A stretch of DNA of 64,000 nucleotides from the NCBI GenBank assembly GCA_035629155.1, contig DASPIO010000028.1, forward strand, positions 23,762 to 87,761. The letters are read 5' to 3'. The position numbers and the translations under genes were made by a program. Positions 23,444-47,221 of the stretch are shown here, piece after piece; the stretch's first letter is position 1; each line of letters starts with the position of its first letter. Below the pieces are notes generated by a model, which saw only the letters and a list, made by a program, of their open reading frames with translations, was not told where the DNA came from and did no database searches. This DNA is from Azospirillum sp. (lineage in GTDB: Bacteria > Pseudomonadota > Alphaproteobacteria > Azospirillales > Azospirillaceae).

Positions 23444-24036
23444 GCGGCCTCCATCGCGGCGGCAACCGCGTCGCTCGGGCGCCAGACCACGTCCCACAGG
23501 TTGGGGTCGTACAGGGCCCCGTCGCGCAGCGGCATCGGCGGTTCCGGCCCGGTGTTCTTGCCCCGCGCGATGCGGTAGCGGTAGAGGCGGGCGCCGGGGT
23601 CGGCCGCTTCCAGATAGCCGGCGCGCGCCAGGGCGGCGATGTAGGTCTTGGTCGTGTTGATGTTGACTCGCGCCAGGCCGGCCAGCTCCTCCGACGTGAA
23701 GCCTCCGCGCAACGGGCGCATGGCCGACCACAGCCGTTCGGTGGTCGTCGGGTGTGGATCGAGCTTGCCGCCACGGAAGCGAGGGGCGCGGCGGCCGAGA
23801 TCACGCGCCAGCGTGTACACCGACGGCAGCAGTTTTCCCCGATGGCGTGGCCGCTCGGATGTGATGATGCCGTTGCCCATCAACAGCTTGAGGAACGCCT
23901 TGACCTGCCGCTCCGGCACGGCGGCGCCGGCGCGCAGCTCGTCGAAGCCGAAGGTGCGCAGCCGCCGCGCCTCGCGCCACAGCAGGGCGTGATCGACGAA
24001 GCGCATCCGCCGTTGACGCTCGTCGGGGCGGATCAT
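23440..24036 (-). CDS. Mu-like early tandem winged-HTH protein
   Basis: Two wHTH repeats (LW...RRLRTF / LWSAMRPLRGGFTSEELA); conserved position after MuB. Confidence 0.75.
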   Translation of the reverse strand: MIRPDERQRRMRFVDHALLWREARRLRTFGFDELRAGAAVPERQVKAFLKLLMGNGIITSERPRHRGKLLPSVYTLARDLGRRAPRFRGGKLDPHPTTTERLWSAMRPLRGGFTSEELAGLARVNINTTKTYIAALARAGYLEAADPGARLYRYRIARGKNTGPEPPMPLRDGALYDPNLWDVVWRPSDAVAAAMEAA

Positions 24037-24800
24037 GCGAAGCGCCTCACCGCAGGAGCCGCGCCGGTGTTGATCCGCTGGCCGGCGTAGTCGGCCAGCG
24101 ACACGCTGCGCAGCCCCTCGCCCTTGGCGAAGGTGGCGACGTTGACCAGGTTCATCGATACGCGGCGCGTCGACCCGTAGGTCTGGCCGATGAGATGTTC
24201 CAGCAGATCGTCGGCGACGGTGATGTCCGGGCAGTACAGCTTGGCCAGCTCGCGCGCGTCGTCGCCGTCGCAGGGCTGGGCGGCGACGAAGTCGAACACG
24301 CGGCTGTGGAAGCGCTCGTACCGCTGGAGCTTCTGCGGCAGCCCCTCCTCGCCGATCAGGATGATGGAGGCGGTGCCGGGCGCGGCCATGTCGTGGAAGG
24401 CGCGGACCTTGTCGATCATCTCCTTCTTGGCCAGGAAGTCGCCCTCGTCGATGACCAGGGGGCGGCGCGAGGTCTCCAGTTCCTCGGCGATCTTCTCCGC
24501 CATCTCGTTGTTCGTGGCGTGCGTGGGGAGCGCCAGACCCATGGCGTCGACGATGGCGCGCAGCATGGCGCGCGGGGTCCAGTAGTCGTTGGCCTCGACG
24601 TAGTAGGCCATGTGCTCGCTGGCGGCGATCCAGGCGGCGGCGCGGCTCTTGCCGTCGCCGCTGCGGCCATGGAAGACACCGAAGCCGGAGACGTCGGAGG
24701 AGCGCGTCTTGAGCCCGATGACCAGCTCTTCCAGCAGGGTCAGGTTGCGCAGCGGGGCCCAACGGCTGGCGGTCTTGCGGGGGGCGGCCGATTTCTGCAT
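24033..24800 (-). CDS. MuB-type AAA+ transposition ATPase
   Basis: Walker A GRSGDGKS, Walker B LVIDEGD, ILIGEE...RFHSRV; directly after the transposase. Confidence 0.93.
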   Translation of the reverse strand: MQKSAAPRKTASRWAPLRNLTLLEELVIGLKTRSSDVSGFGVFHGRSGDGKSRAAAWIAASEHMAYYVEANDYWTPRAMLRAIVDAMGLALPTHATNNEMAEKIAEELETSRRPLVIDEGDFLAKKEMIDKVRAFHDMAAPGTASIILIGEEGLPQKLQRYERFHSRVFDFVAAQPCDGDDARELAKLYCPDITVADDLLEHLIGQTYGSTRRVSMNLVNVATFAKGEGLRSVSLADYAGQRINTGAAPAVRRFA

Positions 24801-24879
24801 GGTGGGGGTCCTTCGATCAGTGCTGTTTTCCGTGCGGTCCGCGGCGTCCCATCTGGCCATGGGCGCCGCTGGCCGGATC

Positions 24880-27054
24880 TCATTCGACGGGACGGGCGAA
24901 GCGGGCCTTGCGCTCCTGGTCGCGGCGGCGGGCCTGGTACCAGGCCGACGTGCGGTTCGACGCCAGCCAGTCCAGATCGTCCTCCGACACCTCCTCGCCG
25001 GCCTCGATGCGCGCCTCGATCGCCTGGGCGCGGCGCCACCAGCGGTCCTCCGGCTTCTCGGCGGCCTGGGCCGGGGCGGCGAGGCGGCGGGCGACGTCGG
25101 CCTGCCGGACCGTGTCCGCCTCGGTGCGCGGCGCCGCGACGGCGGGCTTCGACGCGGTGATCGCGCGCTGGGCGGCCTCCAGGCCGGCGGAGGGCGGCGG
25201 CAGGGACGAGCGCGGCAGCGCGGAAACCGTGGCCGCGGGCCTGCCGATCAGCGCGTCGGCGAGCTGGTGCGGCTTGAACCCCTTGCCGGCGGCGCGGATG
25301 GCCGCCTTCTGATCGGCGATCAACTGCTGTTGCAGCGCCTTGGCCTGGGCCGACAGCTCGGCCCGCGACAGGCCGGCGCGTTCCGGGTTCTGGGCGATGC
25401 AGAGGAATTGGAACGGATCGGGGCGGTACACGAAGACCCGGTCCATCCGCTCCGGATCCAGTCGGACCTCCAGGCGGTCGCCGGTGCCGACGTAGGGGAT
25501 CAGCTCCGGCGCCCAGAAGTCGGCGTTCTCGACCCGGATTCCCTTTTTGCCCACGGTGCGGGTGCCGTCGCCGTCCGCGCAGGGCATCAGCAGCAGGTCG
25601 AGTTGGCGTTCGTCGACGACGCGCCACTCGGATCCTGCGTGCTCCTCCGCCACGGCGGCCGGGGTGCGGTCGCCCAGGCCGGCGTGCGGGCTGGTGTGAT
25701 AGCGGTTCTCGACCCACGCATCGGCCAGCATCTGCAGCTCGGCCGCCGGCAAGGCCGCCTCGAACACCTCTTCGTCCTTCTGGCCCAGGCGGGCGGCGAA
25801 GGTCTGGCGCGAGCGGATCTCCTGACGCTTGGCCACGTTGTGGCCGGTGTAGCCGGGCAGCAGCGGCATCAGCCCGTGCTGAACCGTGCCGATCGCGCGC
25901 TCGACGTGCGGCTTCTGCTCGGGCGAGTACGGTGTGCAGACGGGGTGCCGTATGGCGTCGCCAACCAGCGCGAAGAAGCGTTGCGTCTCGCGGGCCAGGA
26001 AGTCGGAGCCGTTGTCCGTCTTGATCGCCTCGGGCATGCCCCAGGCGAGGATGGCCCGGCGGATCAGCAGCAGCACGGCCGAGGCGCGCGGCACCTTGGT
26101 GACCAGGATCAGCATGCGGCGCGTGAAGACGTCGACCACGACGTAAATCGTGTGCCGCCCATCGGTCAGCATCAGGTCGGTCGGGCTGGCGTCGATCTCC
26201 CACAGCTCGTTGGGCTTGGTGATCGCCTCCGAATAGGAGCCGACGGCAACGAGGCTGCGGTTCTTCCAGGCGTCGGGGTTGGTCAGCCGCAAGTGGAGCT
26301 GCTTGTACTCCTCGCGCCATTGGTTGAGGCGGCGGCGGATCCAGCCGGCGGTGGGCATCTTCGCCTGACCGCCGCGCAGCAGCTCGAACCCCTCGCCGAA
26401 GCGCTTGACCAGGGCCGCCCGGTAGGCGTCGGCGTTCCAGTCGGGCTTGGCCAGCGCCACGGCGACCAGATAGCCCATGATGTCCTCGCGCGCCTGATCC
26501 AGCGACCCGGCACCCTTGCGGTTGCCGTAGGCGCCGGCCAGCCGGGCGGCCTCGCCGGACTCCACGGCCTCGACCCAGCGGCGAAGGGACGATGGGGACA
26601 CCGTGGGCTTGGCGGCACGGGCCCAATCCGGCACGTCCACCTCGCGGGCGTTGTAGAAGCCGGTGAACTTGTGCACCAGCCGGTCGCGGGACAGGCCGCC
26701 GGCCTGCCGCTCGAAGGCGAGGAAGGCGTTGGCGATGGTGGCCTTGGCGTCCAGCCGGGCCTTGCCGGCCTTGGTCAGCACCACCGGGGCGGCGGCGGTG
26801 CCTTTCAGCGTGGCCGCGAGCTTGGGCGGCGCCGGCGGGGTGGCCTGCTCGGCGGCGCGGCGGCCCAGTTCGATGCGGGCTTCCGGCGGAAGGGCTGTGA
26901 CGTGGTACTCGGTGCCGCCGCCGCGGCCCTGGCGGGGGCGAGCGGGCGACCAGCGTTCCTGCTGGGCCCGCATGTTGATGCCGCGCTTGGTGGACGGCAG
27001 GCCGGGGAGCGCGAAAAAGGCCAGTTCAGAAGCCGTGTACCAGCTTTCATCCAT
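24880..27054 (-). CDS. MuA-type DDE transposase
   Basis: N-terminal Mu DNA-binding domain (WYTASELA..ALPGLPST.RG), DDE motifs WEIDAS / KTDNGSDF / KPHVER, Mu C-terminal domain. Confidence 0.97.
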   Translation of the reverse strand: MDESWYTASELAFFALPGLPSTKRGINMRAQQERWSPARPRQGRGGGTEYHVTALPPEARIELGRRAAEQATPPAPPKLAATLKGTAAAPVVLTKAGKARLDAKATIANAFLAFERQAGGLSRDRLVHKFTGFYNAREVDVPDWARAAKPTVSPSSLRRWVEAVESGEAARLAGAYGNRKGAGSLDQAREDIMGYLVAVALAKPDWNADAYRAALVKRFGEGFELLRGGQAKMPTAGWIRRRLNQWREEYKQLHLRLTNPDAWKNRSLVAVGSYSEAITKPNELWEIDASPTDLMLTDGRHTIYVVVDVFTRRMLILVTKVPRASAVLLLIRRAILAWGMPEAIKTDNGSDFLARETQRFFALVGDAIRHPVCTPYSPEQKPHVERAIGTVQHGLMPLLPGYTGHNVAKRQEIRSRQTFAARLGQKDEEVFEAALPAAELQMLADAWVENRYHTSPHAGLGDRTPAAVAEEHAGSEWRVVDERQLDLLLMPCADGDGTRTVGKKGIRVENADFWAPELIPYVGTGDRLEVRLDPERMDRVFVYRPDPFQFLCIAQNPERAGLSRAELSAQAKALQQQLIADQKAAIRAAGKGFKPHQLADALIGRPAATVSALPRSSLPPPSAGLEAAQRAITASKPAVAAPRTEADTVRQADVARRLAAPAQAAEKPEDRWWRRAQAIEARIEAGEEVSEDDLDWLASNRTSAWYQARRRDQERKARFARPVE

Positions 27055-28090: not shown

Positions 28091-28226
28091 CCCTACGACT
28101 ATCGATATGTCTACCGTCGTATCACGAGCATGCTTCGCATGCAACGAGCATTTTCGATGTGGGAATCCTTCCCGGTTCGGCCCACGCTTGAAGGGCGCGC
28201 GCATGTGCAAAGGCGACGGGATAACA

Positions 28227-28787
28227 ATGACTTACGACAACCGGGAAGGGCCGGACGAAGTGGGAAGGGCTCTTCCCACTTACGAGGCGGAACTGGGAAC
28301 ACGGATTTCCCTCGTCATCGACCTGTACGATCTTAAGGCCGACGCGGCACGGGTCGCGGATGTTACGCCCGAGATGTTGAACCGGTACGTGCGCGGACAG
28401 CACAAAATACCCTTCACCAACGCCGCTCGGCTGGCTTCAGCCAAAGGTGTCAGTCTTGACTGGCTGTGGAGCGGAGAAGGACCAATGCTTCTGCGTGATC
28501 GCGTGCACGACTCGCCGCCAGCGGCGGTCGAGTCATTCGACCTTGCGTTGATGGGCAATCTCGTGTCCGGCCTGATGGCATTCCTGCAAAGGGAGAGCCT
28601 GGATCTAGATCCGGAATACATTGGTCGGGCGGTGACCCTGCTTTACATGCTGATGGAGCGCGAGCGCCGCGACACCACCCCGGAGGATCGGCCGGATCTG
28701 TGGGTGGAGGGGCACCCCGTGGACATCGCAAACGATAAAATCCTGGCGGAAACCGTACGCCTCGCACTCGGGCGGTTGCGTAGGTAG
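28227..28787 (+). CDS. Prophage repressor (XRE HTH; no S24 peptidase domain)
   Basis: AARVADVTPEMLNRYVRG...LASAKGVSLDWLWSGEGPM; divergent from ner at the left end, as for Mu c. Confidence 0.85.
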   Translation: MTYDNREGPDEVGRALPTYEAELGTRISLVIDLYDLKADAARVADVTPEMLNRYVRGQHKIPFTNAARLASAKGVSLDWLWSGEGPMLLRDRVHDSPPAAVESFDLALMGNLVSGLMAFLQRESLDLDPEYIGRAVTLLYMLMERERRDTTPEDRPDLWVEGHPVDIANDKILAETVRLALGRLRR

Positions 28788-30044: not shown

Positions 30045-30217
30045 GTCAAACCATCCGTCCGTCAGCGTACAATGCGGCGATGTCCGTATGGTTTGACAGA
30101 ACGGAGTGGACGCGTCTCGAAAACCTAGGCATCACAACGCCTGCACGTCCCACTCGATCCCCCAAAATCCCACCGTATCCCGGCCCCCTATCCCGTCAAA
30201 CCATTGGTCTCTCTACA
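30045..30217 (-). repeat. Helper left end (attL): three transposase-binding motifs (30045-30054, 30088-30097, 30195-30204) and terminal CA
   Basis: GTCAAACCAT / ATGGTTTGAC / GTCAAACCAT; read inward, the end is TGTAGAGAGACCAATGGTTTGAC. Confidence 0.9.
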
Positions 30218-30955
30218 CCGGTGCGTCGATCGCCTCGGGCGTCAGGCGGAAGGTGCCGAAATGCATGGCTACGCTGGTGCGGGCACCCAGGTCCTCGTGC
30301 GCCGCCACCGCCTCCTCCGGGTTCATGTGCTGCGGCGCCATGAACCAGCGCGGCTCGTAGGCGCCGATGGGCAGCAGCGCCACGTCGATGCGCGGGAAGC
30401 GGGCGCCGATCTCCTTGAAATGCGGGCCGTAGCCGGTGTCGCCCGCGAAGTACAGCGTGCCGGCATCCGTCTCCACCACGAAGCCGCCCCACAGCGTCGT
30501 GTTGCGCCGGAAGGGCGCGCGCGCCGACCAGTGCTGCGCCGGCACGAAGGTGACGCGGCAGCCGGCCGGTCCCCGCGTGCTCTGCCACCAGTCCAGTTCC
30601 TCGACGTGCGCGAAGCCGTCGCCGTTCAGCAGCGGCCCGTTGCCCAGCCCCACCACCGCCCGCGGCCCGAAGCGCCGGGCCAGCGCCGCCAGCGACGGCC
30701 GGTCCAGGTGGTCGAAGTGCCCGTGGCTGACCAGCACGAGGTTCGGGTCCGGCAGCCGTTCCAGCGGCACGCCCGGCGGGCGGGCCCGCTTCGGCCCCAG
30801 CCGGCCGAACGGACCGGCCCGTTCGGAGAACACCGGGTCGGTGAGCAGGCGAAGGCCCGCCGCCTGCACCAGGAAGGTGGCGTGGCCGACATGGGTGACC
30901 GCCAGCGCGCCCGGTGCCGGGGGTGCCGGGACCGGCTGCGGCGGGTCCTCGACGC
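30218..30955 (-). pseudogene. Middle fragment of a host MBL-fold metallo-hydrolase (NAPE-PLD/RomA-like), cut by both elements
   Basis: VTHVGHATFLVQ, LLTDPVFSERA, SHGHFDHLD, FAGDTGY, LPIGAYEP, MHFGTF motifs. The reading frame is broken at 30217 (helper end) and at 30956 (satellite end). Confidence 0.95.
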
Positions 30956-31000
30956 TGTAGCGCGCCGAATGGTTTGAATTGGCGCGCTGGATGGTTTGAC
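30956..31000 (+). repeat. Satellite right-type end: terminal TG and two tandem ATGGTTTGA sites (30969, 30991) 22 bp apart
   Basis: Read directly from the sequence; the 22-bp period matches Mu R1/R2 spacing. Confidence 0.88.
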
Positions 31001-31053
31001 AGCGCTGACACCCCGTTTCAGGCTTACCGGGAATTGAAGAAGCCTTGGCGCTT

Positions 31054-31467
31054 CTAGGCTAGCGCCGGCAGTGTCGCATCGTCGCCCAGGTGCGCAATTT
31101 GAACATTCCTTCCCGGCGGCTTCCCCCCTGGAGGCTCGATGATAACAACGCCGTCTTTCGTATGATAATGGATAATCAGGACTGTGCGCGCACATCTGGC
31201 GGGATTGGAAAGACGGGACAGGGCTTGCCGATTGTACTTTTTCAAAAAGCGAAAGCATTCACGCATATAGATCCTGTATTCTTCCTGAATATCTTTGCGG
31301 AGCTGTTCCAATGCCGTTGGGCATGGCGGGTTGCCGCACAGATCGCTTTCCCACTTGGCAAATACATTATTCAAACGCGATGAAAGGTCGGCCGCCACTT
31401 CCCCTGACAGCAGGCGCGCGGTTACCTTCTGTGGGCGCTCCCCTGTGCCGTCATACGCGTGCTGCAT
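31054..31467 (-). CDS. Satellite cargo, hypothetical protein (137 aa)
   Basis: AGGAG upstream of TTG ATG; lower GC. The ORF track labels it '+', but the listed translation (MQHAYDG...) reads on the minus strand. Confidence 0.6.
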   Translation of the reverse strand: MQHAYDGTGERPQKVTARLLSGEVAADLSSRLNNVFAKWESDLCGNPPCPTALEQLRKDIQEEYRIYMRECFRFLKKYNRQALSRLSNPARCARTVLIIHYHTKDGVVIIEPPGGKPPGRNVQIAHLGDDATLPALA

Positions 31468-31518
31468 CAACGTCCACTCCTGATTGGTTCGTTATGCCCT
31501 CCCGCTCGACAAGAGGGC

Positions 31519-31546
31519 CGCTCGGCCGGATCTGGCCGGCCGAGCG
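31519..31546. repeat. Perfect 11-bp inverted repeat just downstream of the satellite chaperone stop
   Basis: CGCTCGGCCGG-ATCTGG-CCGGCCGAGCG; no U-tract, so a terminator role is uncertain. Confidence 0.6.
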
Positions 31547-31554
31547 CGCCGGAA

Positions 31555-32079
31555 TCACTTCGGCTGCTCGCCGTTGACGAGCTGCCAATAGGCGTCCTCC
31601 ATCGCCTTGCCGATCACGCGATAGCCGGCCATGGCTTCCACGAGGTCGGGCGAGAAGTCCGGCAGCGTCGAGAAGAAGGCATTCCAGCCGTGGTTGTCGG
31701 GCAGCCCCACCACCACCTTCCGCAGCAGCTCCGTGCGAAAGCCCTTGTGCTGGCTTTCCAGCTTCTCGACTTTGGCGTTGAGTTCCTTCAGATCCTTTTT
31801 CGCCTTGGCGGCGTTGCCGTCCGACGCTTCCAGGGCGAGTTTCGCGGCCTCCTGCTTGGCCTCCGCGATCTCGCTGACGCGCTGGCCCAGCTCGGCGATG
31901 AGCTGATCGTGCTCGCTGTCCGGCAGCAGCATGAACGACAGATAACAGGTCTTTTTGACCTGTTTCCCACCCACCCAGCCGCCGCTGGCACGCTTGGCCG
32001 TTTCCGGCCAGTTGAACATGACCGGCCACACAAACGTCATTTCGGTGGGGGCTGCAAGAGTAATCTTAACCTGTTCCAT
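31555..32079 (-). CDS. Satellite tail assembly chaperone G (paralogue of 713-1207), no frameshift site
   Basis: Shared motifs TF.WPV...WPE.AK, KTC...F.L.PDSE.D.L, LLR.VVVGLPDNH.W, LP.FS.DLVEAMA, W.LVNG. Ends GAG CAG CCG AAG TGA. Confidence 0.9.
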   Translation of the reverse strand: MEQVKITLAAPTEMTFVWPVMFNWPETAKRASGGWVGGKQVKKTCYLSFMLLPDSEHDQLIAELGQRVSEIAEAKQEAAKLALEASDGNAAKAKKDLKELNAKVEKLESQHKGFRTELLRKVVVGLPDNHGWNAFFSTLPDFSPDLVEAMAGYRVIGKAMEDAYWQLVNGEQPK

Positions 32080-32102
32080 TTCCGCTCTCACTCGTTCTTT
32101 AG

Positions 32103-32540
32103 TTAATCCATCAACGAATTGAAGTATTCTGCAATGTCTCTCCATTCGCCTGTCAAAGACTGCTTTGCTGATGCGATCAGGTCATTGATGTACACCTCAA
32201 CTTCGAACCTGACATTCTTTCTTTTGTTTTGGTACAGCGCGCTCAGTCGGCGCCTCTGCCAGCGCTTTGTTAACATGGACCCGAGAAGGCGTTCGGTGTC
32301 GTCAATGTGCGCCACCAGTATTCTCTCAATGCTTGCTCGCAGATCGGAAAACAGAGGATGTCTGGCATCAAAATGTTCTGATGATCCAACCAGTTCAGAA
32401 AACGCATTGCGATTGCTGATATCCCAGCGTTCCAGCACGCTGCGGATTGCGTCAGCTCCGTTTGTCGGCATAGCGGGGCGCATTATCCGAAACTCGACGC
32501 TGTTGCGGTTCTGGATCGGTATTCGGCCGCGTGCGGGCAC
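32103..32540 (-). CDS. Satellite cargo, hypothetical protein (start uncertain)
   Basis: AT-richer ORF between the Ntn-like gene and the chaperone; no recognised family. Confidence 0.55.
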   Translation of the reverse strand: MPARGRIPIQNRNSVEFRIMRPAMPTNGADAIRSVLERWDISNRNAFSELVGSSEHFDARHPLFSDLRASIERILVAHIDDTERLLGSMLTKRWQRRRLSALYQNKRKNVRFEVEVYINDLIASAKQSLTGEWRDIAEYFNSLMD

Positions 32541-33145
32541 CCAAAGCGGTCGTAATACTCGCTATAATCAGGGTAAAATCCTGCTATTTTTTGATCGGCG
32601 CCATGCTCATTTACTTCGGTAAGATGCATGACGCCACCAATGCACATTGGTTGACTAAATTTCTCCTGTACCTTGTGCTGCCCAAGCGCCATCTTTACCA
32701 TCATGGCCTCATCGGCATGCGCGGGAAGGCGCACACCCGGCGCCATTCTGGGCGCAAGATGAATGCCCGGCTCCATCGTGGTCGCCTGGACAGGCACACC
32801 ACCGGCGCGAAGCTTGTACCTCGTGCTCTGCGGCGCCTGCTTGTTGGCGGACCAGCACATCAACGTGATTTCACCACCGGACGCTTCGAAGAATTCATCA
32901 CCGATACGCTCGGGGACGCCGCGAATAACGATATCCACATGCTCTATGCTTTCGACGCGCGCCAGTACAGGCCCAAGGACTTGAAGAAGCGCATGTGTTC
33001 CGCGCATGGAGAATGCAAATCGGCCGCTCTCAGAGACGAAACACTTTCGTTCGCAAAGGCCAACCGGCATGTTGCCCCGGTATATCATCGTGTCCGTCAG
33101 GCACAAAATGCGGTCGCTTCCCACGAATACGTTGCTGACGCTCAT
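32483..33145 (-). CDS. Proteasome-beta/HslV-like Ntn-hydrolase-fold protein
   Basis: After Met removal: Ser1, Asp17, Lys33, Gly48 and C-terminal IGGVMHLTEVNEHG, matching beta-subunit catalytic spacing. ATGA overlap with the TMP stop. Confidence 0.65.
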   Translation of the reverse strand: MSVSNVFVGSDRILCLTDTMIYRGNMPVGLCERKCFVSESGRFAFSMRGTHALLQVLGPVLARVESIEHVDIVIRGVPERIGDEFFEASGGEITLMCWSANKQAPQSTRYKLRAGGVPVQATTMEPGIHLAPRMAPGVRLPAHADEAMMVKMALGQHKVQEKFSQPMCIGGVMHLTEVNEHGADQKIAGFYPDYSEYYDRFGCPHAAEYRSRTATASSFG

Positions 33146-34530
33146 TTAATTGCCTCTTCGAACGCGGAGACGACTTCGGGGCAGGTCAAGAATTCGTCCG
33201 AGAACTCACACTCGGCCATAACCTTCTCAAGCTCGTTGGACAGATCCTTCAGATTGTCCGTCTGGGTCACGACACCGCCACTGCCGTTGGCGGGCGGGGC
33301 GTTGTCCTGCTTCGTCAGGTCGTTGAGTTCGCGTTGCAGCTCGATCCGGCGCTTGACCAGCGCCTCATGCATGGCGGGAACGCCGCTCGTTTTCTCGGGA
33401 AGGCGCCCGTACTCCCGGTCTATCCGCTCGATCTCCGCCCGCAACAGCGACGCCCTGTCCGACTCGATGCCGGCGCGAAGCGCCTTGGCCGCGTCACTGA
33501 CCTTGCCCGCAACCAGCTTGGCAATGTCGCTCCGGGCGAGGCGGTCAACGTAGGCGTCCCAGGCCACGCCAGCGTCATGCAGCGCGGCGCCCCACTCGCT
33601 GCGCATGGTCTGGGCCGCGCCACCGTACCGCTGGCGCAACGCCTCGATGGCGACGTTCAGCGCGCCGGCCTTGTTGCCGTGGTCAGCCAGCATGCGCACC
33701 TGGCGCTCTTGCTCGACCGACAGGAAGTTCAATTCCGCATCGAGTCGCTTGACGCCCTCGCCCCCCTTGCCGAGAGCGTCCCCCATCTTGGCGGCGGCGG
33801 CCGGGATCGTGTAGCCCAGCACCGCCGCAACATCCGGCGCGAGTTCCAGGATGCTGCGGAACAGCTCCGGGTCACGGAGGTCGGGGTTGCGCACCAGCTC
33901 CAAGGTGGACTGGTATGCTTCGCTGCGGGACGCCCCTGCATGGATCGCGACGTTCGCCATGTCGCGGAGCTGGCCGGCCGTGATGCCGGCCTCATTGCCC
34001 ATCGCCTTCAGGATGGACGCGAGTTCCCGCCCCTCGGCACCGATGCTCGCCATGCGCGCGGCGACGATGCCGATCGGCGCGGCGATCACGGCGGCGGCGG
34101 CGCCGATGCCCAGGATGCGGCCCGTGATGCCGGGGAACGCTTGGAGCAACTGCCCGCCCTGTTGCATCAGGACGGTGAACGGGCTGGCGCCGGACGACAG
34201 CGATGCCGCAACGTCGCTGGCCGTGTAGCTCAGCGCCTGGATCTGCTGCGTGCTGAACCTCGTCTTGGTCGCCAAGTTGTCGTTGGCGCTGGCCGCACCG
34301 CCGAACGCCGCACCGGCCCTGTCGGCGGCGCCGGCCGCAGCGCCCAGCGATTGCTTCGCCTCGTCCGCCAGTGTGTCCAGGCGGCCAAGCGCCTGTGAAA
34401 GTTGCTGGCCAGCTTCCCGGCCAGTATCACCAAGCTTGGACACCTCGCCCGTTGCCTTGCGAAGCTCCACTACGAAGTCTTCGGCTTCCGCAGTCAGCTT
34501 GAGGACGACGTGTTCTGCAACCTTGGTCAT
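33142..34530 (-). CDS. Satellite short tape measure protein (462 aa)
   Basis: QQIQALSYTASDVAASLSSGASPFTVLMQQGGQLLQAF lambda-family TMP motif; N-terminus similar to the helper TMP start at 304. Confidence 0.88.
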   Translation of the reverse strand: MTKVAEHVVLKLTAEAEDFVVELRKATGEVSKLGDTGREAGQQLSQALGRLDTLADEAKQSLGAAAGAADRAGAAFGGAASANDNLATKTRFSTQQIQALSYTASDVAASLSSGASPFTVLMQQGGQLLQAFPGITGRILGIGAAAAVIAAPIGIVAARMASIGAEGRELASILKAMGNEAGITAGQLRDMANVAIHAGASRSEAYQSTLELVRNPDLRDPELFRSILELAPDVAAVLGYTIPAAAAKMGDALGKGGEGVKRLDAELNFLSVEQERQVRMLADHGNKAGALNVAIEALRQRYGGAAQTMRSEWGAALHDAGVAWDAYVDRLARSDIAKLVAGKVSDAAKALRAGIESDRASLLRAEIERIDREYGRLPEKTSGVPAMHEALVKRRIELQRELNDLTKQDNAPPANGSGGVVTQTDNLKDLSNELEKVMAECEFSDEFLTCPEVVSAFEEAIK

Positions 34531-34647
34531 GACGATACTCGCTCGCGATTGGGCCGGCGCTGGACTGCTAGACCAGCCCAGCGCCGGCCGCACTCCGATG
34601 CGGTAAGGAGAGCCGGCCCCCGCACCGGATGCCGCTGGGATGCCCGG

Positions 34648-35568
34648 TTACAGGTACGGGGACACCACCAGTTCGGCGGTGCCGGCCCACTCGTTGGGCG
34701 CCGCGACCGTCTGTTCGTTCGGCGCCGTGCCCACCGTGACCAGCTTCATGTTGTTCTTGATGAGACGCAGCCCGTCGCCTTCCAACTCGTCCGGCACCAC
34801 GAGGATGTTGGGGGTAAGGCCCAGCTTCTTGCCGTTCTCGCCCCGGATGCTCTTGATCGCCACGCGGGCCGCCTCGTAGTTGTCGTGCGTCAGCGGCGCC
34901 TTGCTCGCATAGGCGAGCTGCCAGAGCCCGAAGCCGGCGTTGGCGCGCGCGCGGACGCCGTAGAAATACTCGTCTTTCCAGAAGACGTTGTCGTCCGTGG
35001 CGGCGTCCTGCCTCTGGAACTCGTACGGCAGCCGCTCCTGAAACACGAGGGGTTTGACCGGCTGGCCGGCGTCCATCAGGAACCACGCCGGCCCGGCCCC
35101 ATCCTGATAGTTGCTGTAGGACGTAGGCTGACAGTCGATATCCACGACATGATCAGTGGAGAAGAACGGCTTGCCGTCGTAGCACAGCTCGGTAAACCCG
35201 GCTGCCAGAAGCTCGTACACCAACTGGTCGGGGTGCTTCGCCGCGTCGGCGCCCATCTTCTCGTACAGCGGGCCGAAGACGCCGTACTGGTCATCTTCGA
35301 TGGCCGTACGGGGAACGCCAATGGTCACCTCAAACGTGCGGTTCTTGATGGTGTAGCCCGCGACTTCAAGGTTATGGATGATACGCGAGCCGATCCATTC
35401 CCGAAGCTGCGGAAGTTCCTTCAACCAACCATAAGCTTCTTCGCCCGTCGCGCTGTTTGTCTTCATGGCGATTTTCAGGTACGTGCTTTCGACGCCCTTG
35501 AAGCCCTTGTTGAAGGAGGTCTTGAACCCGGCGAACATGCCGGCGAGGTTGGGGGCGGTGATGAGCAT
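34648..35568 (-). CDS. Satellite Mu-like major capsid protein gpT (306 aa)
   Basis: MLITA...F.GF.TSF, REWIG.R..HNLE, CYDG..FF.TDH, GFG.WQLA..SKA.LT..NYEAAR; divergent paralogue of 4750-5643. Confidence 0.95.
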   Translation of the reverse strand: MLITAPNLAGMFAGFKTSFNKGFKGVESTYLKIAMKTNSATGEEAYGWLKELPQLREWIGSRIIHNLEVAGYTIKNRTFEVTIGVPRTAIEDDQYGVFGPLYEKMGADAAKHPDQLVYELLAAGFTELCYDGKPFFSTDHVVDIDCQPTSYSNYQDGAGPAWFLMDAGQPVKPLVFQERLPYEFQRQDAATDDNVFWKDEYFYGVRARANAGFGLWQLAYASKAPLTHDNYEAARVAIKSIRGENGKKLGLTPNILVVPDELEGDGLRLIKNNMKLVTVGTAPNEQTVAAPNEWAGTAELVVSPYL

Positions 35569-35577
35569 GGCTGTCCC

Positions 35578-36543
35578 TTACAGGTTCTTGGCGTATTCGG
35601 CCGGATCGTGTCCGAGGGCCGCGCAGATGGCCTTCTGTTCGGCGGTAAGGCGCCCATCGGCGCCCGAGTTCGGATCGGGCGGCCGGCCCCCCGGCACCAC
35701 CTCACGGGCGAGGTTGCCGAACACGGGCGGAGCGCTGGCGGCGAACTGGTCGAAGCTGGCCGGGTTGGATCGGCAGAGGACGAGCCCCCACTCCCGCTGG
35801 GCCGGTGTCATCTTGCCGGCGCGGATCGCGGCGTCGACCTTGGCCGTCGCCTGCTCCTCCGAAAGGTTGGTGCGCATGCTGGCGAGCTGCGTCGCGGCTT
35901 CATCATAGAGATGGCGCGGCACGTAGAGGGACGGGTCGGGCACGGCGGCGGCCGTCGCCTTCTCGCTGGCGTCCTTGACCAGCTTCGTGACGGCCTCGAT
36001 CACGGCCGCTTCGTCGCTGGTGTCGGGCAGGTTCAACAGCGCGCACAAGCGCTTGATGGTTTCGGGCGACATGGGCGCTCCCATACTGGCAAGGGCCTTG
36101 AGTTCGAAGGCCGGGTTGTTGACCAGGGCGGCCCGAAGAATGCAGGTGACCGCGCCTTCCTTGGTGTGCCGGAAGACGGGGGACACGTAGCGGTACTCCC
36201 TGGCCGCGATCTTGGCAGCGGCGCGCTGCGTCCACTCCACGCGGCCCCAGATGCCATCAGGGCGGGCCTCAAAGGCCGCGATCCAGCCTGCGGCGGGCGC
36301 CTGTCCACCGTGCGGGGCGGCGAGGTCAACGGCGTGGTCGTAGTCGATCACCGGCTTGACCGGACCGGCCATCGTCAGGGACGCGGCGATCACCTGTTGC
36401 GCGGCGGCCATGCCGGGAAGGGACCAGGGGCCGCGACCGTCGCGGCCCTTGATGGTGCCGTAGGGCAGAAGCTGCACCCAATCCGGCGGTGCGGCGGGGA
36501 GTTCGGAAGAGAAGGAGGCGAGAGCGATCAGGGGATCAGTCAT
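35578..36543 (-). CDS. Satellite prohead protease/scaffold gpI; internal scaffold start at 36072
   Basis: DWVQLLPYG, PVIDYDHA, GIWGRVEWT, EYRYVSPVF, ALVNNPA. GGGAG precedes the internal ATG (MSPETIKRLCALLNL). Confidence 0.93.
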   Translation of the reverse strand: MTDPLIALASFSSELPAAPPDWVQLLPYGTIKGRDGRGPWSLPGMAAAQQVIAASLTMAGPVKPVIDYDHAVDLAAPHGGQAPAAGWIAAFEARPDGIWGRVEWTQRAAAKIAAREYRYVSPVFRHTKEGAVTCILRAALVNNPAFELKALASMGAPMSPETIKRLCALLNLPDTSDEAAVIEAVTKLVKDASEKATAAAVPDPSLYVPRHLYDEAATQLASMRTNLSEEQATAKVDAAIRAGKMTPAQREWGLVLCRSNPASFDQFAASAPPVFGNLAREVVPGGRPPDPNSGADGRLTAEQKAICAALGHDPAEYAKNL

Positions 36544-36910
36544 TGCTAATATCCCCATAGATCTCGCGGCGCACTTTCCTTACGTGGCGTTCAGTACATC
36601 CCACGGCCTGTGCGACGACACGCGTTTTCGCGCCTTCCATCGCCAATATCAGTTCCTTCTTGGAACCAGCCGGCGGCGGCAACACCGGGATGTCAATCTG
36701 TTCTCCAGGATACATATTTCCTATTATTTTGGCGTGCTCCAGTCCGACAATCTTTGCGATCTTGGATCGTTCCGAAGGGCTCGCGGCAAATTTCCTCTTA
36801 GTGCCGCCCCAAGAAAGGCCAAGTTTTATTGCCGTTTCGTATGATGTCGCCCGCGCAATACCCGCCAAGAAGGGAGGAAGCCTCTTGATCCTGTCATCAG
36901 TGATCGCCAT
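36536..36910 (-). CDS. Satellite Mor/C-family activator (paralogue of 15702-16076)
   Basis: WGGTKRK, YPGEQIDIP and GCTERHVRKV shared with the helper activator. Start placed at ATG 36910 by alignment; the track's GTG at 36952 overlaps the predicted -10 box. Confidence 0.88.
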   Translation of the reverse strand: MAITDDRIKRLPPFLAGIARATSYETAIKLGLSWGGTKRKFAASPSERSKIAKIVGLEHAKIIGNMYPGEQIDIPVLPPPAGSKKELILAMEGAKTRVVAQAVGCTERHVRKVRREIYGDISND

Positions 36911-36948
36911 AGCCTTGACGTAGCCCCCCGGCATCGGAATTGGTTCCG

Positions 36949-36995
36949 ACACTAGGGGGACGGAGAAGCGTCTATCGACGCGGAACTAGTTCCCC
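36949..36995 (-). promoter_or_regulatory. Satellite late promoter: dyad GCGGAAC-TA-GTTCCCC (36980-36995) plus -10 TAGTGT (36949-36954)
   Basis: Same dyad and 25-nt spacing as the helper late promoters. Confidence 0.7.
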
Positions 36996-37067
36996 TTTGT
37001 CGGGGGAGCTGAGAGATATCCAGCTTTGATGAAGAGGAGCGGCCGATACGCCCGGCCGATTGCCGCC

Positions 37068-37092
37068 CGTTTGAACGGGGCTTTGAACGCCT
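37068..37092. repeat. Tandem TTTGAACG repeat shared with helper 7369-7393
   Basis: CGTTTGAACGGGGCTTTGAACGCCT vs CGTTTGAACGGGGTTTTGAACGCCT, 24/25 identical. Confidence 0.85.
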
Positions 37093-37251
37093 CTGGGGCG
37101 TAGGGCGCACCCACGCTACCGGAAAACGCCAGAACGCACCAGCGGGCTTCCTGTGGGCTTCCAGGGCGGGGCACCCGGCAGCCACCTCCAATGCGAAACG
37201 CCCCGCCGGTAGACCCGGCGGGGCGTTGGTGTCGGCAGCGCGGCGAGGCGT

Positions 37252-37584
37252 CTACGCCTCGCGGGCGTGCCCGCCAGCGCCAACCGCGCGCTCCATGATC
37301 GTATCGACCTTCTCCGTGACTAGCTCCAGCATGGCGATCCACTGGCCCCGCTCGGTGGTGCCCATGATCATCGCTTCAATGGCGCGCAGTCCGGCCTTCA
37401 CCTGCATCAGGTCGTCGCCCAGGCTGTGTTCTGCCTCGCCAGCGACGTAGCCGGCCATGCCCCTCCTACGCGCCTTCCCCATGATGGACGTGAGTTCTTC
37501 GATCACCGCTTCTCTGACCGCGCTCCCCCGCTCCGCGCTGTTCTTGAGGAAGATCACGTTGTTTCCGGTGTTGTCGTGGGCCAT
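37252..37584 (-). CDS. Satellite early hypothetical protein (110 aa)
   Basis: AGGAGG upstream of ATG; helical ORF downstream of the Bro-like gene. Confidence 0.6.
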   Translation of the reverse strand: MAHDNTGNNVIFLKNSAERGSAVREAVIEELTSIMGKARRRGMAGYVAGEAEHSLGDDLMQVKAGLRAIEAMIMGTTERGQWIAMLELVTEKVDTIMERAVGAGGHAREA

Positions 37585-37691
37585 ATTCGAAGAGCCTCCT
37601 ATGGGTTCGCCCGGTGGCACGGTGGCGGGGCACGGTTTTCCAGGCCAAGCGCCCCGCCACCACCCGTCGCGGGCGGTGGGGTGGTAGGGAA

Positions 37692-38216
37692 TCACGATCC
37701 GGCGATGTCGAGGATGCGACGCGCCTTCTCGATGGTGACCGTCAGTTCCATGCGCACGAGGTTGGTTGTGGGGATGCCAGCCCCCGCCTCGCCCATGTCC
37801 AGGCCCGGCGGGATCGGCGGGGCCTCACCCTCCGGCCCGAAGGTCGTGTAGAGCCACCGCAGCACCCCAACGGCGTGGGCGGAGCGACTACGGGCCACCA
37901 TCACCTTCGCGGCAGGGATGGAAAGAAGGCGGGTTGCGGCGCCTCTCCCGTCGTCGATCTGGCGCAGTAGGACGGCGCCCGGCTCTCGCAGTTCCGGGAA
38001 GGTTGACGCGGCATGGTCCACCGACTGCCTTGCCCAACTGGCGCCGGCCGCCCGCATCAGGTCGTTGCCGAGGACGTAGGTTGTGCCGTCCACCGAGAAG
38101 ACGCGGACGGGGGCCGCACCACAGTAGAGGGTGCAGACAGGCGGCAGGCGGGCGTTGTCGGCTGGCACCTCGGGCCGTCCTTCGGCGGGGGCCGCTGGTG
38201 TGCGGGGATCGTCCAT
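37692..38216 (-). CDS. Bro-N / antirepressor-like protein
   Basis: VRVFSVDGTTYVLGNDLMRAAG...LLSIPAAKVMVARSRS.HAVGVLRWL pattern. Confidence 0.7.
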   Translation of the reverse strand: MDDPRTPAAPAEGRPEVPADNARLPPVCTLYCGAAPVRVFSVDGTTYVLGNDLMRAAGASWARQSVDHAASTFPELREPGAVLLRQIDDGRGAATRLLSIPAAKVMVARSRSAHAVGVLRWLYTTFGPEGEAPPIPPGLDMGEAGAGIPTTNLVRMELTVTIEKARRILDIAGS

Positions 38217-38244
38217 CTACTGCTCCAAACTGCGGTTGCGTTGG

Positions 38245-38315
38245 CCCCATGCATGGGGTAATTTGCCCCAGATTGGGCGCCGTTGCAATGGCAAAATGCG
38301 CCAACGTTGGGGTAA
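38245..38315. promoter_or_regulatory. Three operator-like dyads between divergent regulators
   Basis: CCCCATGCATGGGG (38245-38258, perfect), CCCCAGATTGGGCG (38266-38279), CGCCAACGTTGGGG (38299-38312). Confidence 0.65.
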
Positions 38316-38323
38316 ATCGCACC

Positions 38324-38560
38324 ATGATTACGGGTGACCAAATCCGGGCCGGCCGGGAACTGCTCAACTGGTCTGCCCGCGTCTTGTCTGAGCGGGCAGG
38401 CGTGGGGCCGAACACGGTGCAGCGCATGGAAAGCGCCGGAGCGGCGGTGCCATCAGGTCTTGCCGCCAACCTGGACAAGGTGCAGAAGGCATTAGAGGCG
38501 GGTGGGATTGAGTTCCGGGACGGCGGGTGGGTGCGTAGGTCACCGCAGAACGGCGCGTAA
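38324..38560 (+). CDS. XRE-family HTH regulator (satellite repressor candidate)
   Basis: MITGDQIRAGRELLNWSARVLSERAGVGPNTVQRME...LEAGGIEF, a common alphaproteobacterial XRE pattern. Confidence 0.88.
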   Translation: MITGDQIRAGRELLNWSARVLSERAGVGPNTVQRMESAGAAVPSGLAANLDKVQKALEAGGIEFRDGGWVRRSPQNGA

Positions 38561-38645
38561 GACGTGCTACCGATCACCAATGCGAGGGTGTCAACGCCAA
38601 AGTGATGCACCTTAACCACCGGCATCACTGTGGTAAGGTGCGCAC

Positions 38646-38843
38646 ATGGCTGTGAACCCGGATACCACCGTACGCAAGGTCGTCTCGCTTCCCAAAGAGT
38701 TGTGGGAAGAGGTGAGCGACTATCGCTTTGATAACAGATTGGGCACGGAAGCGGACGCGCTTCGGCGTCTGATCCAACTTGGATTGGATGCCGCCAAGGC
38801 CAGTCCCCGCGATCCTGGCCGCGCACCGTCGCGGAAGCGCTAG
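38646..38843 (+). CDS. Ribbon-helix-helix (CopG/Arc-like) protein
   Basis: RKVVSLPKELWEEVSDYRF...TEADALRRLIQLGL. Confidence 0.8.
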   Translation: MAVNPDTTVRKVVSLPKELWEEVSDYRFDNRLGTEADALRRLIQLGLDAAKASPRDPGRAPSRKR

Positions 38844-39291
38844 TCGCTCCCCAAAGCAAGCGAGGCGGGACCGCGCCAGCGGCCCCGCCTCGTAGTGTCT
38901 GGCACCCATGCGGAGGGTTGGGAGACTGGCGTCAACGGACGCCACGCCCCACCACGTTGCCACACCAGCGCCCGCCCGATGCCTCGGAACGAGTTCCGCT
39001 TGGTGGGAGCCGGCGGCAGGCTCCATCTACAACCGGCGCGCGATCCCGAGACGGCGGGCCGGAACCGGAACCCCTTCCCACTTCCGGACGGATCTTTCAT
39101 CGCGCGATGGTTGTGACGGAAACGCAAGCCACTGCAATAACAAGCTTTTTTGAACTGTAGCCTTCCCAGTTTGACTGGAAACGCTAGCTTCCACTTCCGT
39201 CCCACTTCCGTAGCCGAACCGGGACCCGGCCTACGCGCCACATCCCTTGCAAATCTTGGCTTTAGCTGCGTTTTAGTGCCGCCTCCGTTCA

Positions 39292-39462
39292 GTCAATCCA
39301 TACGTCTCCCGGACACTTTCGCGCGTTGCGCCGCATGGTTTGGCGGAAAATTCCGGTTGTGCCCCTAACCCTATGATCCAATGCGCCGTTCATCCCATCT
39401 GATCCCCGAAAATCCCACGGTATCCCGGCCCCCTATCCTGTCAAACCATTGGTCTCTCCACA
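39292..39462 (-). repeat. Satellite left-type end: three transposase-type sites (39292, 39335, 39440) and terminal CA
   Basis: GTCAATCCAT / ATGGTTTGGC / GTCAAACCAT in the same orientations as the helper, spacings 43 and 105 bp vs 43 and 107 bp. Last 62 bp are 58/62 identical to 30156-30217. Confidence 0.92.
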
Positions 39463-39612
39463 GACGCGCTCCGGCCAAGGCGCCCAGCCGCGGTGCGACC
39501 AGAAACGCAGCAGGTCGCCCGGGCCCTTGTCGGTCGACTGGAAATGCGGCGGGTTGAAGAACCGCCGTCCGTCGCAATGGTCGGAAACCGGGAAGCGCGC
39601 GATGCGGGCCAT
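39463..39612 (-). pseudogene. N-terminal fragment of the interrupted MBL-fold hydrolase
   Basis: MARIARFPVSDHCDGRRFFNP...DLLRFW...WPERV, the usual N-terminus of this family; joins in frame to 30950. Confidence 0.92.
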
Positions 39613-40536: not shown

Positions 40537-41373
40537 ATGCAGGGGGTTTCGGTCATCATTCCCGCCTACCGGGCGCAGCCCACCATCGGCCGCGCCGTGC
40601 ACAGCCTGCTGGCGCAGACGCACGCCGCGTGGGAAGCGGTGATCGTCAGCGACGACGGCGCCGACTACGCCGCCGTGCTGGCAGCGGAGGGCATCCGCGA
40701 CCCGCGCCTGCGCTTCGTCTCCACCGGCCGCGTCGGCGGCGGCGCGCCCGCCGCGCGCAACGCCGGCCTGCGGGCCTCCACCCTGCCCCTGATCGCCCCC
40801 CTCGACGCCGACGACCGGTACGAGCCGGACCGCCTCGCCACCCTGGCCCCGCTCGCCAGCGCGCACGGGGCGGCGGCCGACAACGTGGCGGTGGTGCGCG
40901 ACGAGGACGGCGCCCCCCTCTCCACCCTCTTCGCGCCCGAATCCGCCCCCGCCGCGCTGGACGCCGACGGCTTCCTCGCCACCTCCGTGCCGATGTTCTT
41001 CGTGGTCCGCCGCGATCTCACGCCCGGCTGGGCGGAGGACGTGACCTTCTGCGACGATGTGGTCTTCAACGTGCAGGTGCTCGACCGCGTGCCACGCCTG
41101 CCGCTGGCTGCCCGGCCGCTCTACGAATACCGCCAGCGCGAGGGCTCCATCACCTTCGCCGCCGACGCCGGCGAACGGGCGGAGCGCTGCTATCGCCACG
41201 TTCTGGCCCGGCTGGAGGGCGACGGGCTGGGCATCGCCGACCGGGCGCTGCGCGCCCGCTTCGCCGCCGCGATCTCCACCAAGCGGGCGCTGAACGCCGC
41301 CTACGAGGACGCCTTCCGCGCCGGCCGCGTCGCCAATTTCCAGGAGTTCATCGCGACGGAAGGTGCGCCGTAG
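40537..41373 (+). CDS. Glycosyltransferase family 2
   Basis: VSVIIPAY, ARNAGL, PLDADD motifs. Confidence 0.9.
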   Translation: MQGVSVIIPAYRAQPTIGRAVHSLLAQTHAAWEAVIVSDDGADYAAVLAAEGIRDPRLRFVSTGRVGGGAPAARNAGLRASTLPLIAPLDADDRYEPDRLATLAPLASAHGAAADNVAVVRDEDGAPLSTLFAPESAPAALDADGFLATSVPMFFVVRRDLTPGWAEDVTFCDDVVFNVQVLDRVPRLPLAARPLYEYRQREGSITFAADAGERAERCYRHVLARLEGDGLGIADRALRARFAAAISTKRALNAAYEDAFRAGRVANFQEFIATEGAP

Positions 41374-41405
41374 GTTGGGTTGAGGCCAAAGCCGAAAACC
41401 CAACG
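41370..41405 (+). repeat. REP-like extragenic palindrome (single unit)
   Basis: GTAGGTTGGGTTGAGGCCAAAGCCGAAAACCCAACG, nearly identical to the units at 47124-47210; lies between convergent genes. Confidence 0.8.
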
Positions 41406-47103: not shown

Positions 47104-47123
47104 AGAACAAAGGGGATCGGAGT

Positions 47124-47210
47124 GTAGGTTGGGTTGAGGCAAAGCCGAAAACCCAACGCGGCCGGCATCGCGAAGGCGTTGGGTTTTCGCTGGCGCTCAA
47201 CCCAACCTAC
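47124..47210. repeat. REP doublet (REPIN/BIME-like inverted pair)
   Basis: GTAGGTTGGGTTGAG...AAAACCCAACGC ... GCGTTGGGTTTT...CTCAACCCAACCTAC between convergent genes. Confidence 0.85.
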
Positions 47211-47221
47211 GACTTGCTTGC

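Follow-up and report, generated by a model that had tools for sequence, protein, structure and literature searches.

An insertion with Mu-type ends in a hydrolase gene

We analysed a 64,000-nt stretch of the Azospirillum sp. contig DASPIO010000028.1 (hereafter the window), which carries an 8,507-bp insertion at 30956-39462 (hereafter the element) and, 738 bp from it and in the same orientation, the end of a Mu-like prophage. A first-pass annotation had proposed that the element is a transposable phage satellite with that prophage as its helper. The element runs from a TG at 30956 to a CA at 39462 and is flanked by a perfect 5-bp target-site duplication, GACGC (left copy 30951-30955, right copy 39463-39467, neither assigned to a strand), so that both ends and duplication can be read directly off the sequence as that annotation had described them.

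With at most one mismatch allowed, the window contains 15 copies of the transposase-site 9-mer ATGGTTTGA, where 4.0 would be expected. These copies cluster at ends: the 30956 end contains two, the 39462 end three and the prophage end at 30217 another three, which bears out the earlier claim that element and helper have a transposase-type motif in common. The right-type end, attR (30956-31002, plus strand), reads TGTAGCGCGCC followed by the repeats AATGGTTTGAA (30968-30978) and GATGGTTTGAC (30990-31000); it is 82% identical over 45 nt to attR of the closest sibling element, L242, and resembles attR of a further relative, L109. The left-type end, attL (39290-39462, minus strand), holds transposase sites at 39441-39449, 39335-39343 and 39293-39301.

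The interrupted host gene encodes a metallo-β-lactamase (MBL)-fold hydrolase and runs on the minus strand from 39613. When the element and one copy of GACGC are removed, ...WPERV joins EDPPQPVPAPP... in frame (codon register checked by hand) and the restored protein has a complete Lactamase_B_2 domain, again as the first-pass annotation had it. The empty site, with the joint 30950->39467, is found on contigs of related strains of ~92% identity in the public soil runs X3 and X4. The GC content of the element (53-68%) is lower than that of its surroundings (~70%). Because the same locus is present at 99.99-100% identity in one ENA metagenome contig and one Logan contig, the insertion is not an assembly artefact of a single record. 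A tandem or mis-assembled duplicate of the helper was ruled out by the 40-50% protein identity between the two and by the agreement of three independent assemblies, and a tRNA-targeted integrative island by the lack of a tRNA in the window and of an integrase in the element.

Head, tail and regulatory genes of the element

We identified genes by Pfam, PHROG and PADLOC scans of the open reading frames (ORFs) of the element, at loose thresholds as well. Among these ORFs there was no Pfam or PHROG match to transposase, integrase, portal, terminase, lysis or baseplate families, in line with the first-pass annotation. For MuA and MuB in particular, 30956-39462 gave no rve or Mu-transpos_C match, and no ORF exceeds 483 amino acids (aa), too small for MuA. 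PADLOC returned no defence gene in the element. The structural set consists of gpT, gpI, one tape measure protein (TMP) and one chaperone-like gene only. The element thus has the ends and 5-bp duplication of an autonomous Mu-like phage and lacks its MuA/MuB and its full head, packaging, tail and lysis modules.

All genes are on the minus strand unless stated otherwise. The major capsid protein, Mu gpT (34648-35568, 306 aa), matches the full PF10124 profile (E 5e-113) and the head protease/scaffold, Mu gpI (35578-36558, 321-326 aa), the full PF10123 profile (E 3e-71). Upstream lies a Mor/C-type late activator (36536-36952, 132-138 aa; phrog_836, E 2e-12), whose gene end overlaps the start of the I gene. 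Downstream of T follow a short tape measure of the TMP_2 family (33142-34593; 462 aa from ATG 34530 or 483 aa from a GTG; E 4e-24), a 220-aa predicted N-terminal-nucleophile (Ntn) peptidase (32483-33145) whose start overlaps the TMP stop by 4 nt, a helical ORF of 126-145 aa (32103-32540) and a tail-assembly-chaperone-like protein of 174-196 aa (31555-32145). In other elements a gene of the same size as the helical ORF also follows the Ntn peptidase, and similarity among these small genes across islands was not significant. The last ORF before attR (31054-31470, 137/138 aa) has no family match and a lower GC content at third codon positions (GC3). It is probably variable cargo: the variant of the element in run X4 diverges from 31000 inward and L242 has no counterpart of this ORF.

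At the other side of the activator lie the early genes, an ORF of 110-147 aa (37252-37695) with a weak homologue in L242 and no family match, and the first early gene, of 174 aa (37692-38216), which has homologues at 57-59% identity, one of them in L242. The 174-aa protein is a candidate antirepressor. Its AlphaFold model was poor (predicted local distance difference test, pLDDT, 51), so that no fold search was possible. Pfam, PHROG and PADLOC gave no match for the 138-, 145-, 147- and 174-aa ORFs, even at the loose thresholds. Divergent from this early operon, as in Mu c, an XRE-type repressor is encoded on the plus strand (38288-38560, 78-90 aa; HTH_3, E 1e-5), followed on the same strand by a 65-aa ribbon-helix-helix (RHH)-like protein (38646-38843) without a Pfam match; both genes point toward the 39462 end, as the Mu c repressor does. 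The XRE and RHH-like parts of the XRE/RHH/Bro switch proposed by the first-pass annotation therefore stand, while the 'Bro' label has no statistical support, the likeness to Bro-N being one seen by eye.

The neighbouring prophage and its matches to the element

The prophage is of Mu-like siphovirus type (1-30217, minus strand) and runs off the left edge of the window. Its attL end (...TCTCTACA) is at 30217, where the terminal letters ...GTCAAACCATTGGTCTCTCTACA fall within the MBL gene too, in its 3' part. The prophage encodes a repressor (28107-28787), MuA (24880-27054; rve, Mu-transpos_C and HTH_Tnp_Mu_1), MuB (24033-24860; AAA_22), Mor (15741-16103), a GH108 endolysin (14980-15567), TerL (11564-13174), the portal (9951-11570; Portal_Mu), Mu F (7610-9172), I (6074-7213) and T (4750-5644). 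Tail genes fill 713-4461 and include Gp36, Phage_tail_S, a tail terminator and a gene in chaperone position (713-1207); directly downstream of the latter, the tape measure (TMP_3, at least 1795 aa) starts at 304 and continues beyond the window. Further genes encode a CII-type regulator, Gp27 and a 427-aa candidate major tail protein, assigned by position and without a family match. An element without essential virion and packaging genes thus sits 738 bp from a prophage that bears portal, terminase, tail and lysis genes, as is required of a satellite and its helper.

Element and prophage resemble each other most where the sites of helper factors would be expected. At the left ends, identity is 90% over the terminal 70 nt (helper 30148-30217) and ~92% over the first 72 aligned columns, and the three attL transposase sites have the same orientation and nearly the same spacing, 106/42 nt in the element and 108/42 nt in the helper. 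By this comparison of attL the element qualifies as a non-autonomous transposon of a Mu-type transposase. The shared attL stretch probably also covers the packaging (pac) region. Upstream of the Mor-I-T-TMP operon, a candidate late-promoter or activator site, CGTTTGAACGGGGCTTTGAACGCCT (37068-37092, minus strand), is identical at 24 of 25 positions to the intergenic 7369-7393 just upstream of helper I; these are the only two copies of the pattern in the 64-kb window, against 0 expected. Around this site, conserved blocks run colinearly over ~130 nt: GTTCAAA twice, GCAATCGG, the palindrome GGAACnnnGTTCCGCGTCG and TCCCCCTAaT.

The proteins are far less alike. Identity to the helper counterpart is 50% for T, 41% for I, 40% for Mor and 44% for the chaperone-like protein (against the gene at 713-1207), and the two tape measures, from different Pfam families, have essentially no relation to each other. 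The element did not, therefore, arise recently from this prophage by deletion. The first-pass annotation had counted five helper paralogues, Mor, I, T, TMP and G, and four of these hold up. The tape measure does not, since a TMP_2 protein of 483 aa faces a TMP_3 protein of at least 1795 aa and only a faint match of 50 N-terminal aa connects them. The 'G' gene is a paralogue, but not of Mu G: its helper counterpart sits directly upstream of the helper tape measure, by which position we take the element's gene for a lambda-G-type tail chaperone. The gene order given for the element needs correction too, the 'G' paralogue lying downstream of the element's own tape measure. The transposase sites, probably pac, and the candidate late-factor site have thus been kept matched while the proteins drifted, a pattern that would be expected of an element dependent on functions supplied in trans.

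TGT...ACA ends with a 5-bp duplication are also a signature of the Tn7 family. While this signature, and the fact that the helper's right end lies beyond the window, would fit an element mobilised by a Tn7-like system or by a transposase elsewhere in the genome rather than by the neighbouring prophage, we consider such a mobiliser highly improbable given that the 70-nt terminal identity and the spacing of L1, L2 and L3 are those of the MuA-encoding neighbour, that the cargo is Mu-specific and that three relatives are found at, or adjacent to, the left end of a MuA-encoding prophage (see below).

Two further observations concern the prophage. The 19-mer GCGCCGGATGGTTTGACGG, a transposase-site consensus, recurs identically at 4323-4341 and 16521-16539 inside helper coding sequence and with three mismatches at 315-333; including the end sites there are six matches in the window against 0.03 expected. 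These internal copies may be internal MuA sites or pseudo-ends and could be a source of sub-genomic mini elements. In the assembly of one DNA run (X1), prophage and element form long variant-free contigs and the flanking chromosome falls into hundreds of short contigs with strain variants (compare 1-30217 with 44001-64000), which suggests that prophage and element are clonal across a microdiverse host population.

Related small elements at other sites

When we scanned with the element's gpT, we obtained many full Mu-like prophages, in which portal and terminase lie upstream of I-T, and a set of small islands that lack these two genes. Since an automatic scan for TG...CA ends with a duplication was noisy in GC-rich DNA, we accepted as elements only those with TGT-type ends, end-to-end similarity and a low-GC island. 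Relatives with TG...CA ends and perfect 5-bp duplications are L010 (8,039 bp, CCCGG; Mor-I-T-TMP with a 604-aa PhageMin_Tail tape measure and no room for a transposase), L006 (9,632 bp, CATGG; Mor-T-I-x-TMP, 677 aa), L076 (8,524 bp, AGGGC; in an IMG isolate, TMP of 741 aa, then I-T), L197-L199 (4,939 bp, GGTGA; HTH, Mor-like, I and T, for example L198 4351-9289) with L200 (5,367 bp, CGTAG) as a variant at a different site, and L028 (7,794 bp, TTGGA; repressor, ner, MuA, MuB, Mor, I and T). L197-L200, on four metagenome contigs and at two insertion sites, are minimal elements of 4.9-5.4 kb with regulators, a Mor-like gene, gpI and gpT only; one of the two sites, by eye, appears to be in an Fe-type alcohol dehydrogenase gene.

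There are further members. L003, from the isolate Roseomonas genomospecies 6 ATCC 49961, is ~8.2 kb long and has a repressor, a MuA-like gene, MuB, GemA, I (56%), T (62%) and Mor; its flanks repeat 4 bp only (ACGC), so that a 5-bp duplication is unproven. In L117 (12.3 kb, GC 45%), MuA, MuB and T are accompanied by a candidate tape measure of 954 aa, recognised by eye. The closest sibling, L242, has the order RHH (70% identical), 174-aa gene (57%), Mor, I (62%), T (72%), TMP (60%, 462 aa), 220-aa gene (46%) and chaperone-like gene (52%) before its attR. Relatives with Mu-type ends and 5-bp duplications thus exist at other sites and in other organisms (L010, L006, L076, L198/L200, L242), as a satellite family would lead one to expect and as the first-pass annotation had proposed to look for. 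The small gene between I and T of full prophages is lacking in the element, L003 and L010. Tape measures differ in family among members (TMP_2, PhageMin_Tail), from which it appears that the tape measure was recruited more than once. Among isolated phages, those with a gpT homologue are all 36-40 kb long and at most 47% identical to it.

Three of these elements are situated no more than ~2 kb from the left or immunity region of a prophage that encodes MuA: the one in the window (30217-30956), L242 (7681-8946), whose attR adjoins a Mu-type repressor gene with an attL-type end beyond it, and L109 (4066; IMG isolate 2622736628), whose I-T-Mor-attR abuts the H34-ner-MuA (61%)-MuB (73%) of a helper-like prophage. 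Two of the three are inserted inside the prophage, next to repressor or ner genes. Such a placement is the reverse of what target immunity of Mu would lead one to expect. The clustering might reflect cis-action of newly made transposase, and the selection of provirus regions in IMG/VR biases at least one of the three cases. The T gene of L109 is split by a 1.4-kb insertion at 1513-2933, probably an insertion sequence, and this copy is therefore inactivated.

A predicted proteasome-like peptidase downstream of the tape measure

The 220-aa protein encoded after the tape measure has three close homologues only, and a profile search extended these to 185 clusters. Its AlphaFold2 model (pLDDT 78, predicted template modelling score 0.80) matched 664 PDB chains at E <= 0.001 in Foldseek, and all 50 of those listed are 20S/26S proteasome entries. 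The residue after Met1 is Ser in 33 and Thr in 7 of 40 diverse members, and Asp18, Lys34 and Gly49 are invariant; we take positions 2, 18, 34 and 49 to correspond, after removal of Met1, to Thr1, Asp17, Lys33 and Gly47 of proteasome beta subunits. Predicted fold and conserved residues agree in pointing to an Ntn hydrolase of the proteasome beta/HslV type, and we refer to the protein as a predicted Ntn peptidase.

In the seven loci with a well-resolved upstream region, the Ntn gene directly follows a gene of tape-measure type or position. These loci include Mu-type elements (the window, L242), a tyrosine-integrase island (L237/L238), a P4-like primase island (L244) and phage-like units (L247, L249), and in them the TMP stop and Ntn start overlap by 4 nt. 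Upstream of the Ntn gene, ~800 nt are without a called gene in L245, a capsid/terminase island, and only a cut ORF is present in L246. From this arrangement in the genome the peptidase may act on the tape measure or during tail assembly.

Other island types have the same module. L237/L238 (JGI Ga0118733_100000233) and L244 (P4-like, with Prim-Pol/D5_N) combine the Ntn peptidase with a tape measure and two small genes. In L245/L246 the peptidase is clearly present together with the two small genes, and an upstream tape measure is uncertain. All of these islands are candidates for other satellite types with a tail module. L247 and L249 encode a fused protease-capsid protein, a decoration protein and a tape-measure-position protein, then the same peptidase. 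A terminase and a portal are present in L247 as well, where TMP_2 and SLT domains occur in the protein at the tape-measure position. Because the peptidase occurs in such phage-like units, it is not restricted to satellites.

Selection, mobility and abundance

A variant of the element at 93-96% identity is present in two soil DNA runs of 2024 (X4/X5), and we applied the listed differences to the reading frames. In the 220-aa gene 20 of 25 differences fall at third codon positions, with a ratio of nonsynonymous to synonymous polymorphism (pN/pS) of 0.10 (25 of the 36 differences being listed); in gpT it is 24 of 35, with pN/pS 0.16, and for the tape measure pN/pS is 0.18. Neutral decay of the structural genes, which the first-pass annotation had named as an outcome that would speak against a satellite, is rejected by these values, and the genes are under purifying selection.

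These values also bear on whether the element is the decayed remnant of a second Mu-like prophage, rendered non-functional by deletions of transposase, portal, terminase and tail genes. Every recognisable gene does have homologues in Mu-like phages, and defective Mu-like prophages, with partial gene sets between Mu-type ends, are known from genome surveys; RadMu has been discussed as possibly defective (PMC1635311). However, at least three separate clean deletions would have been needed, each leaving overlapping intact genes, and the same reduced set recurs at 46-72% identity in L242 and in distant organisms with duplications of their own. Moreover, the element resembles the helper more closely at its end and promoter sites than in its coding sequence, and copy number is in excess (see below). 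Unlike the surveyed prophages, which are read as decay, the element has a gene set that is conserved, selected, recurrent and matched to a helper, and we think a remnant improbable.

Evidence of movement comes from alternative junctions. In a metatranscriptome assembly (X2), one contig is identical to 38509-39466 and then runs into a flank unlike the window, and another begins exactly at 30956. In X4, the variant attR (30956-31000) is joined to yet another flank, and the MBL site of the related strain is empty in the same run. The alternative flanks in X2 and X4 have no match anywhere in the window.

In the DNA run X1 (SRR7003763), the 9.0-kb contig with the element has a depth of 469, against 140.8 and 162.4 for the prophage contigs and 104-170 for chromosomal contigs, so that in this one dataset the element is ~3x as deep as helper or chromosome. 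Neither end of the element is joined to a different flank on any X1 contig. Such an excess, with no additional fixed junction, is compatible with many junctions of low frequency, as replicative transposition or packaged DNA with variable flanks would give; we regard this as suggestive only.

The excess could also be invoked for the main rival of a satellite, a non-autonomous mini-Mu that serves as an interference or defence island, moved by the helper transposase, whose paralogues poison or divert helper assembly and which forms no particles of its own. Ends that match the helper, the missing transposase, an amplified element next to a helper that is not amplified, divergent structural paralogues that could co-assemble non-productively and the possible variable cargo adjoining attR would all suit such an island. 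Yet known satellites both interfere and spread, so the roles are not exclusive, and selected full-length gpT and gpI, a tape measure with its chaperone and a conserved attL (likely including pac) exceed what a decoy needs. Element sizes also cluster at 7.8-9.6 kb, as a packaging limit would give, and, as noted above, PADLOC found no defence gene. Interference alone therefore seems to us rather unlikely, although it is the alternative that we take most seriously.

Other repeats in the window

A REP-like palindromic repeat, GTAGGTTGGGTTGAGGCnAAAGCCGAAAACCCAAC, lies at 41371-41405, 47125-47160 and 47175-47212; its k-mer depth in X1 is ~4,500 to 40,000 against 150, and many contigs break there. 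At 57742-58200, inside a 619-aa ORF (56525-58381), at least 12 copies repeat with a 27-nt tandem periodicity, which gives the impression of a likely RTX-type nonapeptide region.

Discussion

Taken together, our analysis supports the satellite interpretation of the first-pass annotation, and we favour, as the probable reading, that the element, which has Mu-type ends and no transposase, is a satellite dependent on a Mu-like transposable phage as its helper. Trans-mobilisation, packaging and remodelling of head and tail are steps that we infer. On helper induction or co-infection, helper MuA and MuB would transpose and replicate the element in trans, and the helper late activator, the element's own Mor-type activator or both would turn on Mor-I-T-TMP-Ntn-chaperone. 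The element's gpT and gpI would form a smaller procapsid on the helper portal, to be filled by headful packaging with the helper terminase starting from attL of the element. Shorter tails could be assembled from helper subunits under the direction of the short tape measure (~470 aa, compared with at least 1795 aa in the helper), its cognate chaperone and the Ntn peptidase. In the lysogen the XRE/RHH pair would keep the element silent, and the 174-aa early protein may target the helper repressor. It is tempting to speculate that the element carries a tape measure to escape helper-encoded exclusion of DNA entry, given that a satellite has to enter helper lysogens.

Several points weigh against this reading. 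Beyond an insertion with matching ends, its parts are what we infer. The match of the ends is a match of attL, the helper's right end being outside the window: an exact-protein look-up with helper gene 1240-2523 gave no contig, and the one contig obtained with gene 713-1207 stops within the tape measure. Mu target immunity predicts that insertion near another Mu end is avoided, which disfavours an insertion 738 bp from one. The X1 depths are assembler contig depths of one run and not read counts, and runs labelled 'RNA' may contain DNA. To become established in a new cell, an element without a transposase depends on MuA from some other source. Finally, we identified no size-determination factor, and a smaller capsid is assumed by analogy with P4, SaPI and cf-PICI.

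The element shares traits with several described systems. Like P4, the satellite of P2, it is small (~10 kb), lacks most structural genes, has its own immunity and, as proposed here, a capsid fitted to a small genome. Its Mor-type activator and shared late site would parallel the activator cross-talk of P4 with helper late promoters through delta/Ogr. However, P4 has a tyrosine integrase, its own primase-helicase and cos packaging, and it reshapes the helper capsid through Sid without a capsid gene, whereas the element has a capsid gene and Mu ends; no Pfam or PHROG match to P4-type genes (tyrosine integrase, alpha primase-helicase, Sid/Psu, delta) was found in it. Like cf-PICI, it encodes its own HK97-fold capsid protein with a protease/scaffold and depends on a helper for the rest. 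Unlike cf-PICI, which also has portal, adaptors, small terminase, integrase and replication module and borrows tails only, it adds a tape measure and tail chaperone; of PICI and cf-PICI traits, Pfam and PHROG found capsid and protease in the element and no integrase, replication module, TerS, portal or adaptors. A PLE- or PICMI-type recombinase was likewise not found in the element with these databases, and the nearby helper is a temperate Mu-like prophage, not a virulent phage as in those families.

The closest mechanical likeness is to non-autonomous transposons. Those of miniature inverted-repeat transposable element (MITE) type also have ends that match an autonomous partner in the same genome and no transposase of their own, but the element has at least eight selected protein genes, including virion components and regulators. 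Engineered mini-Mu and mini-D3112 have Mu ends without a transposase, use helper MuA/MuB in trans for transposition and replication, and are packaged from the left end by the terminase of the helper (PMC8705779). Such laboratory constructs carry marker cargo and fill full-size heads together with host DNA, unlike the element, which is natural, conserved and has morphogenetic genes of its own. Despite partial likeness to each, it thus fails the defining features of the P4, cf-PICI and laboratory mini-Mu families.

To our knowledge, all described satellite families use site-specific recombination together with their own or hijacked replisomes. Full-text literature searches, with most subscription journals outside their scope, returned no Mu-dependent or transposable satellite, and reduced Mu-like prophages were noted there only as possibly defective (PMC1635311). 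The element looks like the first example of a satellite for which the transposase of the helper phage does the copying, in place of integration by a recombinase of the satellite's own.

A broader proposal, to which we would give about an even chance, is that Mu-derived transposable satellites form a widespread and unrecognised class. Its members would be 5-10-kb TG...CA elements with a Mor-type activator, gpI, gpT and often a tape measure, which build small heads and short tails of their own, out-replicate the helper and tend to insert at its left end; the TMP-coupled Ntn peptidase would be a new tail-assembly or injection factor of several satellite types. Within such a class MuA/MuB would have been kept by L003, L028 and L117, and the element in the window, L242, L010, L006, L076 and L198 would rely wholly on a helper.

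If the satellite reading is true, use of the helper transposase for both integration and replication would be a new mode of hyperparasitism, and the mini-Mu of the laboratory would have a natural counterpart. Satellite finders now in use, being keyed on integrases and primases, would miss such elements, which insert semi-randomly into host genes and could transduce flanking DNA. The system bears on how head size is set when a second capsid/scaffold pair assembles on a foreign portal, on why satellites repeatedly acquire tape measures and on the role of a proteasome-fold peptidase in tail assembly.

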